64,000 bases of DNA from an uncultured Nitrospiraceae bacterium (lineage in GTDB: Bacteria > Nitrospirota > Thermodesulfovibrionia > Thermodesulfovibrionales > SM23-35), in NCBI GenBank assembly GCA_963727775.1, contig CAVSHB010000001.1, forward strand, positions 960,001-1,024,000, given 5' to 3'. Made by a program: the position numbers and the translations under genes. The notes beneath the pieces are model-generated. The model was not told the DNA's origin and searched no databases. It saw only the letters and a program-made list of their open reading frames with translations. How positions within the stretch are numbered: the first letter of the stretch is position 1; each line of letters starts with the position of its first letter. Below are positions 12,153-21,721 of this stretch, piece by piece.

Positions 12153-12839
12153 TTAATGAGATTTCTTGGCCGGAGCAGCCTTGGGAAGCTCTATCATTGC
12201 TACATTGCCTGTAGAAATGTCGTACTCACCCGCAACTATCTTTAACTTGCCTTCGCCGGAGAGATGGCTGATAAGAGCGCTTTGTTTCATAATATCTTTA
12301 TATACGTTTTTTACATTCTCTTTGATGGCTGTTTCCAGGATTTCATCCTTGGTGCCGCCTTCCTTCTTTGCCGCCTTAGCAGCAGGGGTAATCTTTTTCA
12401 CGATTGCCCCGATATTCCCCTCGGGTTCTCCCGTTGTTTCAAGTGACGCTGTGACCGCGCCGCATTTTGAATGCCCGAGTATGAATAACAGGGGGGCGTG
12501 CAGATGTTCAGCGCCGTATTCGATGCTGCCGAGTGCTATGGGATCGACGACATTCCCTGCGACCCGAATGACGAAGATGTCCCCAAGTCCCTGGTCAAAC
12601 AATATTTCCGGCGGGACCCGCGAATCGGAACAGGCGATCACGATTGCAAAAGGTTTCTGACCTTTCGTCAATTCCTGTCTCTTGGTGCTGCCCACGTCTT
12701 TCTTTAACAGATTGCCTGACACATACCTCTTGTTACCGTCCATCAGTTTTTGCAGCGACTCGTCGCTGACCCCTGCAAAAACAAATCCTGAAAAGACAAC
12801 TACTACGAGTAAAGCCAAAAGAATCCGGCATCGTTTCAT
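12153..12839 (-). CDS. Beta-class carbonic anhydrase with signal peptide
   Basis: CSDSRV, RVAGN, GHSKCGAV zinc ligands; N-terminal signal peptide. Confidence 0.93.
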   Translation of the reverse strand: MKRCRILLALLVVVVFSGFVFAGVSDESLQKLMDGNKRYVSGNLLKKDVGSTKRQELTKGQKPFAIVIACSDSRVPPEILFDQGLGDIFVIRVAGNVVDPIALGSIEYGAEHLHAPLLFILGHSKCGAVTASLETTGEPEGNIGAIVKKITPAAKAAKKEGGTKDEILETAIKENVKNVYKDIMKQSALISHLSGEGKLKIVAGEYDISTGNVAMIELPKAAPAKKSH

Positions 12840-12894: not shown

Positions 12895-14049
12895 TTAAGC
12901 TGCTTTTGTCTTTTTCTTTGCCGCGGAAAAGACCGCAGCAGCATTAAATGTGCCGTCTATGGCCTGAACAGGACACTTGGCGGTACATATTCCGCAGCCG
13001 ACACATTTCGGTTGGTCAATGATATGCATCTTCTTAAGCTCACCTGAAGGAGCATTGACAGGGCATACTTTAGCGCATATCCTGCATCCGATACAATTAT
13101 CCATCACAAAGGCTTTTGGTCTTTGCGGAATGAAATCGGTTATGGCTTTTGTGGGGCATTTGGGTACACAAAGACCGCACGCCGTGCATTTATTGAGATC
13201 TATCTTCGAAAGATTGTTCTCGACGGAAGGCGCATCGAAGGGACAAACCTTAACACAGGTGCCGCATGCAGTGCAGCCTACCCGGCAGTTTTTCCTTGTA
13301 TCAACACCCTTATCCTTTGAATGACAGGTCACGAGTACCTGCCTTGAAGCAGGAAGTACCTCTATGACCTTTGTGGGGCATACCGCTTCGCACTTTCTGC
13401 AGCCGGTGCATTTTGTGATGTCGACATACGGGAGATGATCATCGGTCATTGTGATGGCGTCAAAAGGGCATACGCGTGAACATGTTCCATAGCCCAAACA
13501 GCCGTACCTGCATGCTTTGTCTCCGCCGCCCGCAAGAATGACTGCCCTGCAATCCTGAACACCTTCATAGGTAAATTTCTTCACAGACCGGTTCCATCCA
13601 CCGGTGCACATGATTCTCGCAAAGATAGGCTCTTTGGCTTCGGCCTTCTTCCCGGTGATCGATGCAACCGCTTCTGACCCTTTTATGCCCGCGGGGACGC
13701 AAAGGTTGGGAGCGACCTCGGGCCTGTTGACAACCGCATCAGCATACTGTTCGCAACCTGCGAACCCGCAGGCGCCTCAATGCGCGTGCGCGAGCACATC
13801 CATTACCTTTTCTATCCTGGGATCAATCTTTACAGCAAACTTTTTTGCGGTTAAGGCAAGGCCTATGCCGAATACTATGCCGACACCAGATAGGAAAAGC
13901 AAAGTGAACTTAATCAAGGGGACTAATTCGACATGTTCTTTGACTTCAACCCCCCCGCCGACACCAACTAAGGGGATCAGAAAATGGGATGCATCAATCA
14001 GGTGAAGCAACCCGGCTATGTCTCTCAGCAGATAATGGATTTCGACCAT
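12895..14049 (-). CDS. rnfB: Rnf complex subunit B, polyferredoxin type, with in-frame UGA (probable selenocysteine) at 13777-13779
   Basis: ORFs 13777..14049 and 12895..13611 share one frame; readthrough gives LAHAH-U-GACGFAGC..NLCVP matching the RnfB CxxCxxxxC..C motif; several CxxCxxCxxxCP motifs follow. Confidence 0.88.
13749..13776 (-). promoter_or_regulatory. Putative bacterial SECIS element
   Basis: UGA, 11-nt spacer, then perfect stem GTTCGCA-GGT-TGCGAAC with loop G at +19. Confidence 0.75.
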
Positions 14050-14067
14050 AAAATTTATTTTAGCATA

Positions 14068-14661
14068 CTACAGTTTTATTAATCCCGAAAACCCCGTGAA
14101 CGCGAGGGCAATCAGTCCTGTAACTACGAACGCGATCGGCGTGCCCTTGAAAGGCGCCGGGATATCGGCAAGCTCAAGTTTTTCACGGATGCTGGCCATT
14201 ATGATTAAGGCCAGTGCAAATCCGAGTCCGGAACCGAACGCAAAGGCGATGCTCTCGATGAAACTGTAATGCTCACGCGCATTGATCAAAGGCACCGCGA
14301 GAATTATGCAGTTTGTCGATATGAGGGCGAGGTAAATACCGAGCTTGTAATAAAGGTCCGGTGAGACCTTTCTCATAATTGTGTCGGACGCCTGGACAAA
14401 ACCGGCCACGATACCGATGAAGATAATTATCTTCAGGAAGGCGATGTCGAGCGGCACCATGACATAATTGAAAACAATCCAGCTCAGTGCCGCGCTTATC
14501 ATCATCACTGATGTGAATGTGATGCTCATTCCTACAGCGGTTTCCATTTTCCGGGAGACACCGAAGAAGATGCAGAGACCAAGAAACCTGGTGAAAACAA
14601 AGTTGTTGATCAATGATGCTGCGATTATGAGTTCAAAAAGTTTTGCGAAATCATTGCTCAT
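14068..14661 (-). CDS. rnfA: Rnf complex subunit A
   Basis: NNFVFTRFLGLC, LGIYLALISTNC, IREKLELAD motifs; operon position. Confidence 0.93.
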   Translation of the reverse strand: MSNDFAKLFELIIAASLINNFVFTRFLGLCIFFGVSRKMETAVGMSITFTSVMMISAALSWIVFNYVMVPLDIAFLKIIIFIGIVAGFVQASDTIMRKVSPDLYYKLGIYLALISTNCIILAVPLINAREHYSFIESIAFAFGSGLGFALALIIMASIREKLELADIPAPFKGTPIAFVVTGLIALAFTGFSGLIKL

Positions 14662-14909: not shown

Positions 14910-15521
14910 CTAATGACTTTTTTTATCACTCATGCTCATCCAGTTGAAAAATCCCATTAATATTCCAACGGCAAAAAAACCGCCGGCCGGCAGAATCATG
15001 ATAAGAAGGGGTTTTGCATTGATGATCTGATGTCCCCATAATGATCCTTTCCCCAACAGTTCCCTGCAAAAACTAATTACTGAAAGGGCAAGCAAAAAAC
15101 CGAGACCCATGCCGATGCCGTCAAACATGGAAGGAACAAACTTGTTTTTACTTGCAAACATCTCGGCCCTCGCAAGGATCGACGCAAAGGCCACAATCAA
15201 TTGTATGTAGAGGCCCATCTGTTTGTAGGCCTCCGGCGCGAAAGCCGCCATTGTCATATCGGTAACAGTCACCCATCCCGAAATAACAAGCATAAAGATA
15301 GGGAGCCTTATCCTGGGGTGAATAAGCCCCCTCATAAGCGATATAGTGAGATTGACCATAACCTGGACGAAGAGCACGGCAGCGCCCATTAGAACGCCGT
15401 TCTCCAATTTATTCGTCACCGCAATAGAAGGGCAGAGGCTGAGCGCAAGCTTGAAAATAGTGTTTTCTTTAAATATCCCGTTTTTTATGAGTTCGAAATT
15501 AGTTGTGTTTGTCTGGGACAT
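14910..15521 (-). CDS. rnfE: Rnf complex subunit E
   Basis: GIFKEN..LSLCPSIAVT, RELLG, ILPAGGF motifs. Confidence 0.92.
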   Translation of the reverse strand: MSQTNTTNFELIKNGIFKENTIFKLALSLCPSIAVTNKLENGVLMGAAVLFVQVMVNLTISLMRGLIHPRIRLPIFMLVISGWVTVTDMTMAAFAPEAYKQMGLYIQLIVAFASILARAEMFASKNKFVPSMFDGIGMGLGFLLALSVISFCRELLGKGSLWGHQIINAKPLLIMILPAGGFFAVGILMGFFNWMSMSDKKSH

Positions 15522-16092
15522 TGTCTCTTCCCTTTTCTTTTATTTTCTTCATGAGGAATTCAACGCCGTTTTTTACAGCATCCTCGGTAACAGCTCTGCT
15601 GGAAATGGTGGCCCCTGATATTGCCTGAATATACTCTGTTGTGTCCGTCTTTAATACCTTAAGATGCTCCAGGTCTTTACCGCTGAACTGGTTCCTGAAG
15701 CTGTCGGTCTCGATCTCATCTCCGAGCCCGGGTGTTTCATTCTGTCCGAGGATAGCTATCTTACGGACCTTGAAATCATTGTCCGTTGCGATAAGTGTGT
15801 TGATATAACTCGAATAGCCCTTGCCAAAGGACTGGATAATATATCCGATGACAACGTCTCCCTTTTTGGCGATAAAATACTCTGAATGTTTTTCGTGCGC
15901 CGACCAATCGCCTAATTTTTCAATCTTGTCGGCTTCGGGTATAAGCTTCTTTAAGGCCGCCTCTTTTTCAAGAACTGCATTTTTATACATGACAGGCGAG
16001 GTCTTGGCATAAACCAAAGCAAGGATAAGGCCCCCTACAATATATATAATTACGAGGTTCAGGGTTATCTTAATTATATCTTTGCCTGTCAA
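15499..16092 (-). CDS. rnfG: Rnf complex subunit G
   Basis: N-terminal TM helix, ETPGLG, FMN-attachment motif SGATISS. Confidence 0.93.
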   Translation of the reverse strand: MTGKDIIKITLNLVIIYIVGGLILALVYAKTSPVMYKNAVLEKEAALKKLIPEADKIEKLGDWSAHEKHSEYFIAKKGDVVIGYIIQSFGKGYSSYINTLIATDNDFKVRKIAILGQNETPGLGDEIETDSFRNQFSGKDLEHLKVLKTDTTEYIQAISGATISSRAVTEDAVKNGVEFLMKKIKEKGRDNVPDKHN

Positions 16093-16119: not shown

Positions 16120-17115
16120 TTATTTCTTTTTGGACCCGAATATCCTTGTTTTCAAACCTCTGTCAATAAGAGGCGCAAAACAGTTCATTATCAATATCGC
16201 GAACATCACACCCTCGGGATATCCTCCCTTAAGACGTATGAGCATAGTAAGAAAACCACAGCCGGCCCCGAAGACTATCTGACCGTTTTTTGTCGAAGGA
16301 GATGTAACGTAATCGGTCGCCATAAAAAAAGCGCCGAGTATCATGCTGCCGCTCAGAATGTGCAACAACGGGTCCCCTGCAAAAAGGGAGCCTTTAGTCC
16401 CGAATATCCATGCTATCAATGCGGCTGTCCCGATAAACGAGACCGGGATGTGCCATGTGATGTACTTCTTATATATAAGAAATGCAGCTCCGATGAGCAG
16501 GGCAATAACCGATGTCTCGCCGATTGAGCCTGCCCTGTGGCCGATTAAAAGTTGCGTATAAAGGCTTGTCCTGTCACCGAAAAGTTCTATTAGTTTTGTT
16601 ATTCCTTCTTCTTTGAGAATACCCAGGGGGGTTGCGGTTGTTTTAGCATCCAAAAAGACGAAGGCTGCTGTGGGCTCACTCCAGATAGTCATAAGTTTGG
16701 GGAAGGAGATGAGCAGGAACGCCCTTCCGATTAAAGCAGGATTAAAGATATTGTAACCGAGCCCCCCGAATAATTGTTTTGTAATTATGATGGCGACAAC
16801 AGAGCCTATAACGGGAATATAAAAGGGGACGGCCGGCGGCAGGTTCAGTCCGAGGAGGAGACCGGTAAGAAAGGCGCTGCCGTCATTAATATCAACTTTC
16901 TTTCCCAAGGCTTTCTGAAATACATACTCTGAAAGTACAGCGGAAATAATACAAAGCGCCATGGTGAAAACCGCTCTGGGCCCGAAGAAGTAATCCCCCA
17001 TTATTGCGGCAGGCACAAGTGAAGCCGACACACTCCACATAATCCTGCCGGTTGTTTCCTCGCTCTTGACATGTGGACTTACCGAGACAACGAGCGGTTT
17101 TTTTATTACCTCCAT
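16120..17115 (-). CDS. rnfD: Rnf complex subunit D
   Basis: KQLFGGLGYNIFNPA, TTATPL (FMN Thr), GAFFMATD, GYPEGV. Confidence 0.95.
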   Translation of the reverse strand: MEVIKKPLVVSVSPHVKSEETTGRIMWSVSASLVPAAIMGDYFFGPRAVFTMALCIISAVLSEYVFQKALGKKVDINDGSAFLTGLLLGLNLPPAVPFYIPVIGSVVAIIITKQLFGGLGYNIFNPALIGRAFLLISFPKLMTIWSEPTAAFVFLDAKTTATPLGILKEEGITKLIELFGDRTSLYTQLLIGHRAGSIGETSVIALLIGAAFLIYKKYITWHIPVSFIGTAALIAWIFGTKGSLFAGDPLLHILSGSMILGAFFMATDYVTSPSTKNGQIVFGAGCGFLTMLIRLKGGYPEGVMFAILIMNCFAPLIDRGLKTRIFGSKKK

Positions 17116-17128
17116 AAGACCTTTGTCT

Positions 17129-18439
17129 TCACGGTTTTACCTGAGATTTTGCAAGCCGTACAAGCTGAACTATCGGCCTTTTTGACGGGCATACGAAAGC
17201 GCATGAACCGCATTCAAAACAATCGAACAGGTTATATTCTTTCGCCCCTTCGTACATCCCCTTTTCCGAATAGACACTGAGCATTGAGGGCATAAGTCCC
17301 ATCGGGCATACATCGATGCATCTGCCGCACCTTATGCACGGCCCGAAATCTTCTGAGTGGACTATCTCTCCCTCTGTCAACGCAACTATGCCGGAAGTCC
17401 CTTTTGTTACAGGGATATCGAGATCTGAAACTGCAAACCCCATCATTGGACCGCCTGAGATGACCTTCACGTTTTCACTTTTCAGGCCGCCGCATTCTTC
17501 AATAAGATGGGAAAGCAATGTGCCGATTTTTACCTGGAGATTCTTAGGTTCGTTGATCCCTTCGCCTGTTACCGATACAACCCTTTCTATTAAAGGCTTT
17601 CCATATCTGACTGCCTCGAATATGGCAAAGGATGTGCTGACATTCTGTACAACAACCCTTACATCCATGGGTAGGGCCTTTGGAGGGACCTCTCTGTCGG
17701 TTATCGACCGGATGAGCATCTTTTCAGCGCCCTGAGGATATTTTGTAGGCAGTGCACAGACCTTGATATTGTCCTGTCCCTGAACTGCTTCTTCCATCGC
17801 TTTTACGGCGTCAGGCTTGTTGTCTTCTATCCCGACAAACCCCTTGTATACCCCTAATACTTTCATCAATATCTTAAGGCCTTCTATTATCTCATGCGGC
17901 CTTTCGAGCATAAGCCTGTAATCCCCGGTCAAATACGGTTCGCATTCGGCACCGTTAAGGATTACCGTATCGATAGGTTTTTCCTTCGGGGGTGAAAGCT
18001 TTACCACGGTAGGAAAGGCCGCGCCCCCCATCCCGACTATGCCGGCGTTCTTTATCTTCTCCTTCATCTCGTCCGGAGAAAGGCCCATATAATCAGGATT
18101 GTCTTTTAGGATTGTCCATTCCTCTTTATTGTTGTTTTCTATGACAACCGATGTTACCATCCTTCCCATAGCATTGGGGAATTCCCCGATTGCGAGCACT
18201 TTACCGGACACGGAAGAATGCACAGGTGCGGACACAAATCCCGTTGCCTCGCCTATCAACTCACCTTTTTTCACCTCCTGGTCGATGGTCACTACAGGTT
18301 TGCAGGGAGCGCCCAAATGCTGGCTTAACGGTATTACTACTCTGACGGGTGATCTTGTTTCCGCTATCGGCTTGGCTGCAGAAAGCTCTTTCCTGTCAGG
18401 TGGATGTATTCCTCCCCTGAAATTCGAAAAACTTATCAA
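17129..18439 (-). CDS. rnfC: Rnf complex subunit C
   Basis: GGIHP, GMGGAAFPT, NGAECEP, YPQGAE, two 4Fe-4S motifs; start placed at TTG 18439 after AGGAG. Confidence 0.95.
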   Translation of the reverse strand: MISFSNFRGGIHPPDRKELSAAKPIAETRSPVRVVIPLSQHLGAPCKPVVTIDQEVKKGELIGEATGFVSAPVHSSVSGKVLAIGEFPNAMGRMVTSVVIENNNKEEWTILKDNPDYMGLSPDEMKEKIKNAGIVGMGGAAFPTVVKLSPPKEKPIDTVILNGAECEPYLTGDYRLMLERPHEIIEGLKILMKVLGVYKGFVGIEDNKPDAVKAMEEAVQGQDNIKVCALPTKYPQGAEKMLIRSITDREVPPKALPMDVRVVVQNVSTSFAIFEAVRYGKPLIERVVSVTGEGINEPKNLQVKIGTLLSHLIEECGGLKSENVKVISGGPMMGFAVSDLDIPVTKGTSGIVALTEGEIVHSEDFGPCIRCGRCIDVCPMGLMPSMLSVYSEKGMYEGAKEYNLFDCFECGSCAFVCPSKRPIVQLVRLAKSQVKP

Positions 18440-18514
18440 TATCGTCTCCTGTTCATTAATCTGAATAGACAGATACAAAATTCTGTAATTAATAACACAG
18501 GGCAAAGATGAAAA

Positions 18515-19546
18515 TCAAGATAAACCTGTAATTTTATCCCACCCTTTCTTTTTTAACCCTTTTTTTACGATGTCTCCCAGCGCTTGTATAAAAACAGGAT
18601 GGATATTCAGAGAAGCCGTCCTTCGAAGATCCACGCCAAGTTTTCCGGCAAGATTCTTGTAAAGAATGTCTATCTCATATAGTGTTTCGATATGGTCGGA
18701 GACGAAGCTTATCGGAACAACGAGAATGTTTTTTATACCTTCCCCGGCGATTTCCCTGAGTTTTTCTTCAGTAGATGGCTCAAGCCATTTAACGGGACCG
18801 CTCCTTGACTGGTAGCTTAAATGCTTTTTTATCTTTATTCGACGGGTAATCTCGTCAATCGTTTCCATAGTCTGACGAACGTATGGATCACCTTCGTCGA
18901 TTATTTTTTGCGGCAGACCATGAGCACTGAAAAGGACATGAATATCAGCAGCGGAATTTGAACCCCGACCGAAGGATCCAAGTCCTTTGTTTATGACATC
19001 TGCCAACGCATCGATATATAGAGAATGATTGTGCCAGGACGGAATACAGTAAGTCTCTAATTCATACTCTGCTGCAACCTCGCTGAACTTTGCAAGTGAT
19101 GAGCCCGATGTTGCAACAGAATACTGCGGGTATAGGCTTAAGGCTACAATTTTCCTTATACCGTTTTTGTGCATTTCAGGAATGACATCTTCGATGAACG
19201 GGTGCCAGTAGCGCATGCCGGCATAGACCCTGAATGAAAGCCCATCTCCTTGCTTCACATCTTTAGTAAGTGCGGGGCAGGTGGCTTGTTTATTCAGCAA
19301 TTCTTCAAGCGTCTTTGCCTGTGCCTTAGTTATTTCCGCGATCGGGGATTTCCCGCCGATAAGGCTGTACATCTTTTTTGTCTTTCCGGAGCGTATCTGT
19401 GATATAAGCCACGCCAATGGCCTTTGCATAAAAGACGGCCCAAGCCGGATAATCTGTCTGTCTGAAAACAGGTTATAAAGGAACGGCCTTACTGCCTGCA
19501 ACGAGTCGGGGCCGCCGAGGTTAAGCAGGATGATTCCTATGGACAT
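18515..19546 (-). CDS. hemH: Ferrochelatase
   Basis: LLNLGGP, MRYWHP, LYPQYS, FSAHGLP, FVSDHIETLYEID. Confidence 0.96.
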   Translation of the reverse strand: MSIGIILLNLGGPDSLQAVRPFLYNLFSDRQIIRLGPSFMQRPLAWLISQIRSGKTKKMYSLIGGKSPIAEITKAQAKTLEELLNKQATCPALTKDVKQGDGLSFRVYAGMRYWHPFIEDVIPEMHKNGIRKIVALSLYPQYSVATSGSSLAKFSEVAAEYELETYCIPSWHNHSLYIDALADVINKGLGSFGRGSNSAADIHVLFSAHGLPQKIIDEGDPYVRQTMETIDEITRRIKIKKHLSYQSRSGPVKWLEPSTEEKLREIAGEGIKNILVVPISFVSDHIETLYEIDILYKNLAGKLGVDLRRTASLNIHPVFIQALGDIVKKGLKKKGWDKITGLS

Positions 19547-19555
19547 TTCGGGATA

Positions 19556-20587
19556 TTAATTTTCCCTTCCATAGGCATGGACTGCTTCAACCATTGCTAT
19601 GACGTTTTCGACAGGTGTCTGAGGCAAAATACCGTGTCCCAGATTAAAGACATGACTCTTGGCAGTTTCACCTTTCCAGAGAATCTCTTTCACCCTATCC
19701 TCAAGTTTTTCTTTCGGCAGAAAGAGTGCGCATGGATCAAGGTTCCCCTGTACAACCATGTTTTTACCGAGTTTTTTTATCGCGTCGGCGATATCGATCC
19801 TCCAGTCAATTCCCGTCACATCCGCGCCGGATTTCTTGACCTCTTTAAGAATCCCCGCGCAGTCATTCACAAAATAGATGATGGGAACACCTTCTTTCTT
19901 AAGTTCGGAAATAGCCTTCTTAACATAAGGGAAGGCAGATTTCTTATAGTCGGAAGGTGAAAGTATGCCAGCCCATGTATCAAAAAGCTGGACTGCCTGA
20001 GCGCCTGCCTTAATCTGGGCGGAGAGATACGAGATAACGGTTTCCGTAATCTTTTCCATTAAATAATTGAATACGCCGCTGTTCTGAAACATCAGTTTTT
20101 TTGTATTAAAAAAATTCTTTGAAGTCCCGCCTTCGATCATATACGTAGCCAGTGTGAAAGGAGCGCCTGAGAAACCGATCAGGGGGACCTTGTCTTCGAG
20201 TTCCTTCCTCAATATCTTTATGGTATCTAAAACAAAAGGCAGGTCTTCCTCGATATCAGGGACAATCAATCTTTCGACGGCAGACTTGCCTCTTATCGGC
20301 TCGCTGAGCACCGGTCCTTCCTTATCCAAGAATTCAAGACGCATACCCATCGGTTCAACAGGAATAAGGATATCGGAAAAAAGAATTGCCGCGTCGACGC
20401 CGAGTATGTCGACGGGTTGGAGCGTCACCGCCGCAGCGAGCTTCGGGTTTTTACAGAGAGTGAGAAAATCAATATTTGACCGGACAGCCTGATACTCCGG
20501 AAGGTATCTCCCGGCCTGGCGCATGAGCCATACCGGTGTATAATCCACTTCTTTGCCCCGGCATGCCTTAAGGAACGTATTATTCAT
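19556..20587 (-). CDS. hemE: Uroporphyrinogen decarboxylase
   Basis: PVWLMRQAGRYLPEY, AAILFSDIL, FNLGHG. Confidence 0.97.
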   Translation of the reverse strand: MNNTFLKACRGKEVDYTPVWLMRQAGRYLPEYQAVRSNIDFLTLCKNPKLAAAVTLQPVDILGVDAAILFSDILIPVEPMGMRLEFLDKEGPVLSEPIRGKSAVERLIVPDIEEDLPFVLDTIKILRKELEDKVPLIGFSGAPFTLATYMIEGGTSKNFFNTKKLMFQNSGVFNYLMEKITETVISYLSAQIKAGAQAVQLFDTWAGILSPSDYKKSAFPYVKKAISELKKEGVPIIYFVNDCAGILKEVKKSGADVTGIDWRIDIADAIKKLGKNMVVQGNLDPCALFLPKEKLEDRVKEILWKGETAKSHVFNLGHGILPQTPVENVIAMVEAVHAYGREN

Positions 20588-20635
20588 AACCCCCCTCCTA
20601 AATAGGAGCAAGTAATCAGCGTAGCAGGTAAGTAA

Positions 20636-21721
20636 CTACGAACTACCGCTGCTTACTCCTTTCTTTTTTAACCTAACGGGCATATAACCGCAAAAAGGCT
20701 CTTCTTCGAGATAATCTCCTTTAACGGCATAGGCCCTTGCCCTGCATCCGCCGCATACGGTCACATATTCACATGAACCGCACTTCCCTTTATATTTTTT
20801 GAAATCGCGCAATTCCTTGAAAAGTTCCGAATTTTCCCATATGTCCTTGAAAGACTGAGTCCTGATGTTCCCGGCAGGCTTTGGGAAATAACTGCACGGC
20901 AGCACATTTCCGTCCACGTCAATGAGCGCGATAAGCTGCCCTGCAATGCACCCCTTTGATCCGCCTGTAGAAAATTTGAGCGTTCTCCTCTCAAATTTCG
21001 AACTCTCTTCTTTTGATTTCTGTAAAACGATCCTGTAATAATGCGGGGCGCATGTCGGCCGCACCAGTAGTTTGTCTTCATCTTTTTCCATCCGGTAGTG
21101 CCACTCCAGGATTTTTTCATAATCTTCCTTGGAGATAAGTTCGTTCATAATCTCTTCACCCCTTCCCGTAGGGACTATCATAAACAGATACCAGGCAGTC
21201 GCACCGAGTTCTTTTGCGAGCCTGTATATCTTCGGAATCTCTTCCTGGTTCCTTTTTGTAAAGGATGAATTAATGATAAACTCGATGCCGTATTTCTTGA
21301 ATAACTTCGCGGCATTTATTGTGCCGGCGAACGCGCCCTTCTGGCTCCTGAAATCGTCATGCACCGCTTCTTCAGACCCGTCAAGGCTGAGAGAAACAAT
21401 TTTGATCCCCGAGTCCTTTATCTTCTCGCATATGCCGTCTGTTACGACAGTGCCGTTTGTTGCAAGACACATCCTCAGGCCTTTGTTCGTGCCGTACCTG
21501 GCGATCTCAAATACATCCTCTCTCAGCAAAGGTTCTCCGCCGGAAAGGACAATAACAGGTTTCGCATAACTCGTAATATCGTCAATGACCCTGTAGGCTT
21601 CCTCAGTAGGGAAATCCGGATGGGCCTTTACTTCAAGCTCTGAAGAAGAACGGCAGTGGACGCATCTGAGATTGCATCTCCTTGTTATTTCCCATGCTAT
21701 CCATTTGGGTGTAAATTCCAT
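20636..21721 (-). CDS. Radical SAM/SPASM heme-biosynthesis protein (AhbD-like)
   Basis: [27 protein letters not shown] cysteines ending CGGCRARAY; adjacent to hemE/hemH. Confidence 0.8.

Follow-up and report, generated by a model that had tools for sequence, protein, structure and literature searches.

A predicted selenocysteine at an iron–sulfur ligand position of RnfB in an uncultured Nitrospirota bacterium

The rnf operon and its interrupted last gene

The window (the whole stretch of DNA analysed here, 64,000 nucleotides from an uncultured Nitrospiraceae bacterium) carries on its minus strand an rnf operon with the gene order rnfC-D-G-E-A-B, in which the final gene, rnfB, contains an in-frame TGA. 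The features concerned, in window coordinates, are these.

17129..18505, minus strand: rnfC (TIGR01945, 574 bits, cut-off 246)
16120..17115, minus strand: rnfD (TIGR01946, 360 bits, cut-off 207)
15499..16092, minus strand: rnfG (TIGR01947, 102.2 bits, cut-off 102)
14910..15521, minus strand: rnfE (NF009070, 209.5 bits, cut-off 184)
14068..14661, minus strand: rnfA (TIGR01943, 225.5 bits, slightly below the cut-off of 229.3)
12895..14049, minus strand: rnfB (NF005503, 292.9 bits, cut-off 252; TIGR01944, 145.9 bits, cut-off 68.7)
13777..13779, minus strand: in-frame TGA, codon 91 of rnfB, predicted to specify selenocysteine (Sec) as first Fe-S ligand, the others being C94, C99 and C117
13749..13765, minus strand: SECIS-type hairpin, +12 to +28 after the UGA, with six core Watson-Crick pairs and a variable seventh
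Residues 88-119 of RnfB: Pfam match to PF04060, containing U91

Under the standard code rnfB (14049-12895) falls into two ORFs, of 90 aa (13777-14049) and 238 aa (12895-13611); as originally predicted, though with the strand then unstated, they share one frame and the single TGA separates them. Translation with TGA read as U gives a protein of 384 aa in which codon 91 is the only internal TGA, and it bears out the further claim that this codon, in the context H-U-G-A-C-G-F-A-G-C, stands where the N-terminal Fe-S motif (C-x2-C-x4-C-x17-C) has its first ligand. The protein is identified as RnfB by its TIGR01944 score and by its place in the operon; it comprises PF04060 and Fer4 domains, arranged (from alignment to 9ERI_B) as a membrane helix, a single-cluster domain and a polyferredoxin, and its nearest named relatives are from Nitrospirota. 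The remaining five rnf genes are open frames, and no in-frame TGA was found in rnfC, rnfA or rnfE. There is one rnf operon and one rnfB in the genome, with no Cys-type copy, in an assembly that is 96.8% complete, so that a second rnfB may have been missed. One other assembled contig covers 12850-14612 with 74 differing letters, among which, in the rows listed, there is no change at 13777-13779.

Several features of the surroundings may be recorded here. The N-terminus of RnfB (13920-14049, minus strand) has some 40 residues ahead of the membrane helix that are absent from Acetobacterium woodii RnfB; the extension is kept in close relatives, and elsewhere looks (by eye) like a signal peptide ending before G-V-G-G-G. 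A carbonic anhydrase family gene (12153-12839, minus strand; NF011765 match below cut-off) follows on the same strand, its start lying 55 nt beyond the stop codon of rnfB, with which it may share a transcript. Directly upstream of rnfC, again on the same strand, are three genes (18515-21721, minus strand), which from their motifs we take to resemble those for ferrochelatase, uroporphyrinogen decarboxylase and a radical SAM haem-synthesis enzyme.

The hairpin downstream of the UGA

A hairpin was originally described as beginning 11 nt after the UGA with a G at +19, and this is what is found. How much weight can it bear? Comparable hairpins follow 1158 of the 128,627 TGA triplets of this genome (0.9%), and when the same ten residues were synonymously recoded, all six core pairs arose in 3.1% of 100,000 draws; the hairpin is thus more than would be expected by chance, and taken alone it carries modest weight. 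The fold of the region is no more stable than that of shuffled sequences (z 0.10, -1.17 and -0.42), and in all three segments tried the minimum-energy fold uses a competing stem. Pair probabilities for the stem were 0.73-0.77 over +1 to +60 and 0.98-1.0 over +10 to +45, the stem being dominant only when the first nine bases are omitted, a stretch that would be covered by a ribosome paused at the UGA. A search of 13500-14100 against Rfam gave three chance matches and no SECIS family.

The resemblance to the SECIS element of fdhF (taken from the annotated Escherichia coli gene) holds in part. Both have an 11-nt spacer, a stem from +12, GCAGGU at +16 to +21 and a loop starting with G at +19. In fdhF, however, the U at +15 is bulged, the loop is 4 nt long and there is a lower stem, whereas the rnfB hairpin has an unbroken stem of 6-7 bp, no bulge and a loop of 3 nt (3-5 nt across genes). 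The bulged U of the upper fdhF stem has a role in SelB binding. Because it is absent, we class the rnfB hairpin as a bacterial SECIS and not as one of the strict fdhF type. Nor does the loop G, which had been offered as a SECIS feature, count as independent evidence: a Gly codon begins with this base and so forces it, and it is found in 141 of 141 aligned rows, Cys genes included.

Conservation of the TGA and the hairpin among relatives

A first sample of 30 loci from 41 genomes contained seven TGA genes (the window's own among them) and 23 with TGC or TGT. Across the family, 34 of 57 genomes have an rnfB match and 13 of these 34 have TGA, that is, 12 besides the present genome, spread over several genera; in these genes the TGA is the sole stop reported in the matched stretch. 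Class-wide, 208 of 251 genomes have a match, with TGA in at least five of the 150 matches listed, all in this same family. Further afield, 67 of 80 named loci could be scored, and five have TGA; they group with Desulfobacterota genes, and the one that was inspected lies inside an rnf operon. No U appears in any of 120 database homologues.

The recurrence of TGA is accompanied by that of the hairpin. For the pooled comparison 148 loci were assembled, of which 143 were scored and two duplicates dropped; one (G010) has a run of N across the site, and a divergent locus labelled Nitrospiraceae (L096) was tallied with the distant group. Watson-Crick pairing at all six core positions is seen in nine of nine Nitrospirota TGA genes and in none of 70 Cys genes. 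The loci fetched later behaved as predicted (4/4 TGA genes, 0/7 Cys genes), giving 13/13 against 0/77 for Nitrospirota overall, counts that overstate the number of events, since kin are not independent and the 13 carriers do not represent 13 separate events. Among the distant TGA genes only one of five has six Watson-Crick pairs, three of five have six if G-U is allowed, and all five have at least five; six Watson-Crick pairs occur in none of the 57 distant Cys genes. Four codons that vary among Cys genes are invariant in the Nitrospirota TGA genes (GGG, TTC, TGC and GAA, each 9/9). The hairpin is closed by G-C in 9/9 Nitrospirota TGA genes and by C-G in 5/5 distant ones. Thus in Nitrospirota the alignment of homologues, proposed originally as a check, shows the hairpin to be kept only where there is TGA.

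Three Cys-codon rnfB genes, L018 (G012), L041 (G014) and L036 (G007), keep five of the six core pairs, and are likely to be relics of reversion from Sec to Cys.

Where would the selenocysteine lie in RnfB?

RnfB aligns over residues 53-365 to the A. woodii protein (9ERI_B, E 1.5e-81) and over residues 47-306 to 7ZC6_B (E 4.3e-68; PDB 7ZC6 is from Clostridium tetanomorphum according to PMC12174285), and in both the counterpart of U91 is the first Cys to follow the membrane helix. These proteins resemble the window RnfB in having a membrane helix, a mobile single-cluster domain, a polyferredoxin and 32 ligands, and differ from it in having Cys at the U91 position and in lacking its extra N-terminal residues, about 40 in number. 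According to the available part of PMC11889175, the A. woodii helix leads to a mobile domain with a single cluster, B8, by way of which electrons from the polyferredoxin chain reach the [2Fe-2S] centre in RnfA/E; when the B8 cysteines are mutated, four irons and the activity are lost and growth is abolished. The ligand numbers of B8 are absent from the main text of that paper, as far as it was available, so the mapping of U91 to B8 rests on alignment and counting. From homology, then, it is a sound inference that Sec would be a ligand of the membrane-proximal cluster equivalent to B8. (A structure prediction for the N-terminal 97 residues, made without an alignment, had a mean pLDDT of 58.9.)

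Might Sec instead be inserted and serve, free of iron, as a redox-active selenol? The portions of the selenoprotein catalogues available to us give the motif as UxxC and regard most uncharacterized selenoproteins as likely to be redox-active; in HdrA, Sec probably forms a selenylsulfide and is not a cluster ligand (PMC13518236, in the part available); and the solved structures resolve the B8 domain poorly. However, the 31 Cys of RnfB and U91 make exactly 32 residues, enough for eight [4Fe-4S] clusters as in A. woodii RnfB, and the domain offers only four candidate ligands, U91 included, which is to be set beside the loss of four irons from the A. woodii B8 variant (as reported in the available text). 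We regard the iron-free selenol as very unlikely.

Selenocysteine machinery and a second selB

The genome has the genes needed for Sec insertion, all four of those that the original prediction proposed to look for being found: selA, two copies of selB, two of selD, and selC, specifying a tRNA-Sec with UCA anticodon. Throughout the family, selB is present in 13 of 13 TGA carriers. selA was found in all seven TGA carriers of the first sample, yet also in 37 of its 41 genomes overall, so that its presence is necessary and does not discriminate between TGA and Cys carriers; of the five distant TGA carriers, four have selA and the fifth has selB.

Other probable selenoprotein genes were seen in passing. 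The two selD genes (G000:C1:1546371-1547294 and C4:188434-189357) each have one in-frame TGA with a downstream hairpin. Four long frames on C1, near 955131, 957770, 1354353 and 1432506, have an in-frame TGA in U-H context with a hairpin, and from this motif they are likely to encode formate dehydrogenase alpha subunits. A short frame near 518375 (C1, plus strand) reads ...GKEG-U-PFT, also followed by a hairpin, and resembles a glutaredoxin-like UxxT selenoprotein. Genome-wide, TGA-plus-hairpin candidates number 481, a list too noisy to serve as a selenoproteome.

The second selB (C1:1564881-1566725) lies between two near-identical 95-nt tRNA-Cys(GCA) genes, in a selC*/selB* module outside the window (G000:C1:1561763-1566859; L125:6764-11860), with multihaem cytochrome genes nearby. 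These tRNAs have a long variable arm and pass the Rfam cut-off for tRNA-Sec. The pairing of a second selB with a long tRNA-Cys is found in nine further genomes of the family; among 16 selB regions from ten family genomes (each with at least two selB), such a tRNA was present in nine, always with GCA. The available part of PMC5389517 describes the selC* arrangement, reports a second selB in two deltaproteobacterial groups, and records an E. coli assay in which UGA was decoded as Cys by selC* tRNAs whose anticodon is UCA. Could this module then insert Cys, at least at times, at the rnfB UGA? Two selB matches occur in 7/13 TGA carriers and 4/21 Cys carriers, an association that is weak (Fisher p 0.06, with kin not independent). 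But all 11 long tRNA-Cys genes have GCA, and none UCA, and such a tRNA cannot read UGA by normal pairing because GCA reads UGC and UGU; moreover, six of the 13 TGA carriers have a single selB, and the module is found also among Cys carriers, as well as in a genome without an rnfB match. Decoding as Cys is accordingly very unlikely indeed.

Is the gene genuinely continuous?

Two further readings would leave the UGA as a stop. One is a programmed split, in which an anchor peptide would be made apart from a soluble polyferredoxin initiated at the ATG at 13611. The 238-aa ORF does start with ATG, and 151 database members cluster with that piece. Residues 91-146, with three of the cluster ligands, would then be untranslated, yet they are conserved and open in all TGA genes, and there is (by eye) no obvious Shine-Dalgarno-like stretch before the ATG at 13611, although the same is true of the main start; a split of this kind seems extremely unlikely. 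The other, a nonsense mutation or sequencing error that leaves rnfB broken or mis-sequenced, is barely credible: the 90-aa and 238-aa pieces from this genome are both deposited separately in public records, each of the seven sequences in the 90-aa cluster has as its last residue the one just ahead of the TGA, and most relatives have Cys at the site, but it is largely refuted by conservation, in that TGA recurs in the 12 other family genomes and in the five distant ones, the hairpin-keeping codons are fixed, and the other five rnf genes are open.

A selenium-dependent Rnf complex?

It is very likely that the rnfB UGA is decoded as Sec by way of the hairpin, yielding full-length RnfB with Sec as predicted first ligand of the mobile, B8-type cluster, because the sel genes are present, the TGA recurs in the family and, in Nitrospirota, the hairpin is kept only with TGA. 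The original proposal of a probable selenoprotein is in this way well supported, and of the three findings named with it as refuting, none emerged.

By analogy with the established bacterial pathway, SelB would bind the hairpin and bring Sec-tRNA to the UGA, and Sec would replace the first Cys ligand of the mobile membrane-proximal [4Fe-4S] cluster. To judge from the A. woodii structure, the Sec-ligated cluster would serve as the electron relay that links the polyferredoxin chain with the RnfA/E [2Fe-2S] centre. Translation lacking selenium would be expected to give a 90-residue stub and an inactive Rnf complex, and, since there is no Cys copy of rnfB in the genome, its Rnf probably depends on selenium. 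By homology, the complex would be expected to couple ferredoxin:NAD+ oxidoreductase activity to ion transport. Sec at this site appears to be an optional substitute, because most relatives have Cys, and we hypothesize that its most likely role is to tune or protect an exposed cluster. Closely related Sec and Cys forms make a natural pair in which the effect of a selenolate ligand on a [4Fe-4S] cluster gating ion pumping might be studied.

A practical consequence is that gene callers split rnfB, so that Rnf looks broken in the 13 TGA carriers among the 34 rnfB-bearing family genomes; it looks likewise broken in some sulfate reducers and syntrophs.

Origin of the Sec codon

In a tree of 140 rows the TGA genes of Nitrospirota are placed among Cys genes from the same class and away from the deltaproteobacterial TGA group; the TGA label needs four changes, at least three of them forced by starred branches. 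The Cys gene L018, whose hairpin is nearly intact, has a TGA gene as its sister, a placement that suggests reversion from Sec to Cys. An AU test on 48 chosen rows, with groups named after the tree was seen, did not reject the joining of the Nitrospirota and deltaproteobacterial TGA groups (p 0.295). Whether the Nitrospirota gained Sec independently of the deltaproteobacterial cases is, in our judgement, evenly balanced. A much more elaborate combination, in which an independent gain placed the sole Rnf under selenium control and the selC*/SelB pair inserts Cys by near-cognate reading at low selenium, is very improbable; if true, it would mean that a cluster gating respiratory electron flow is switched between Sec and Cys. 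As a fallback for when selenium runs out, Cys insertion is a long shot.

Relation to catalogued selenoproteins and to other RnfB proteins

The caution expressed at the outset, that Sec-RnfB might already sit in existing selenoproteome surveys, proved justified: the same Sec site is already catalogued under another family name, and the selenoprotein itself is not new. Table 1 of PMC13188914, in the part available, includes among predicted families NF005503, with the motif UxxC and the representative WP_258165141.1, and the supplement of PMC12013277 prints that protein with U at the same column. NCBI's present name for NF005503 is RnfABCDGE subunit B, and the window RnfB passes its cut-off. Nitrospirota members may already be in BSepDB.

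The name used in the selenoprotein catalogues hides RnfB, and in the papers searched the selenoprotein and Rnf fields are unjoined. 'Rnf' is absent from the main text of PMC9312934, PMC13188914, PMC13326102 and PMC12013277, as 'selen' is from a 2025 review of Rnf (PMC12174285). The available main text of the GOS paper (PMC2398784), which the catalogue cites for the family, has neither 'Rnf' nor 'Fe-S', and the portions available of PMC5109826, PMC2702500, PMC13518236 and PMC10779653 contain nothing on Sec-RnfB. Titles and abstracts on RnfB with selenoprotein or selenocysteine yielded none on Sec-RnfB, in a search that covered mainly the openly accessible literature. What is added here is that the catalogued family is RnfB, that the site is in the mobile B8 domain, that within Nitrospirota it belongs to one family, and that no Cys copy accompanies it in this genome.

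How does the window protein compare with those known from elsewhere? Sec has been catalogued in other Rnf-related proteins, namely an RnfC-like family (PMC5029168, in the part available) and the PF02508 'NADH:ubiquinone oxidoreductase subunit E' family, which, as far as the accessible entries go, represent other subunits and other sites. The catalogue representative WP_258165141.1 has U-G-G-C where the window protein has U-G-A-C, at the same place (by eye) after the membrane helix, but it is shorter and of deltaproteobacterial type, whereas the 384-aa window protein, from Nitrospirota, has the N-terminal extension and more ferredoxin modules. In Syntrophus aciditrophicus, ABC78901.1, whose accession adjoins that of an older representative, has its last residue immediately ahead of the U column. 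That organism thus appears to have a split Sec-type rnfB together with a gene for a full Cys RnfB (ABC76019.1), a natural test case for selenium-dependent use of isoforms, whereas the genome described here has no Cys RnfB.
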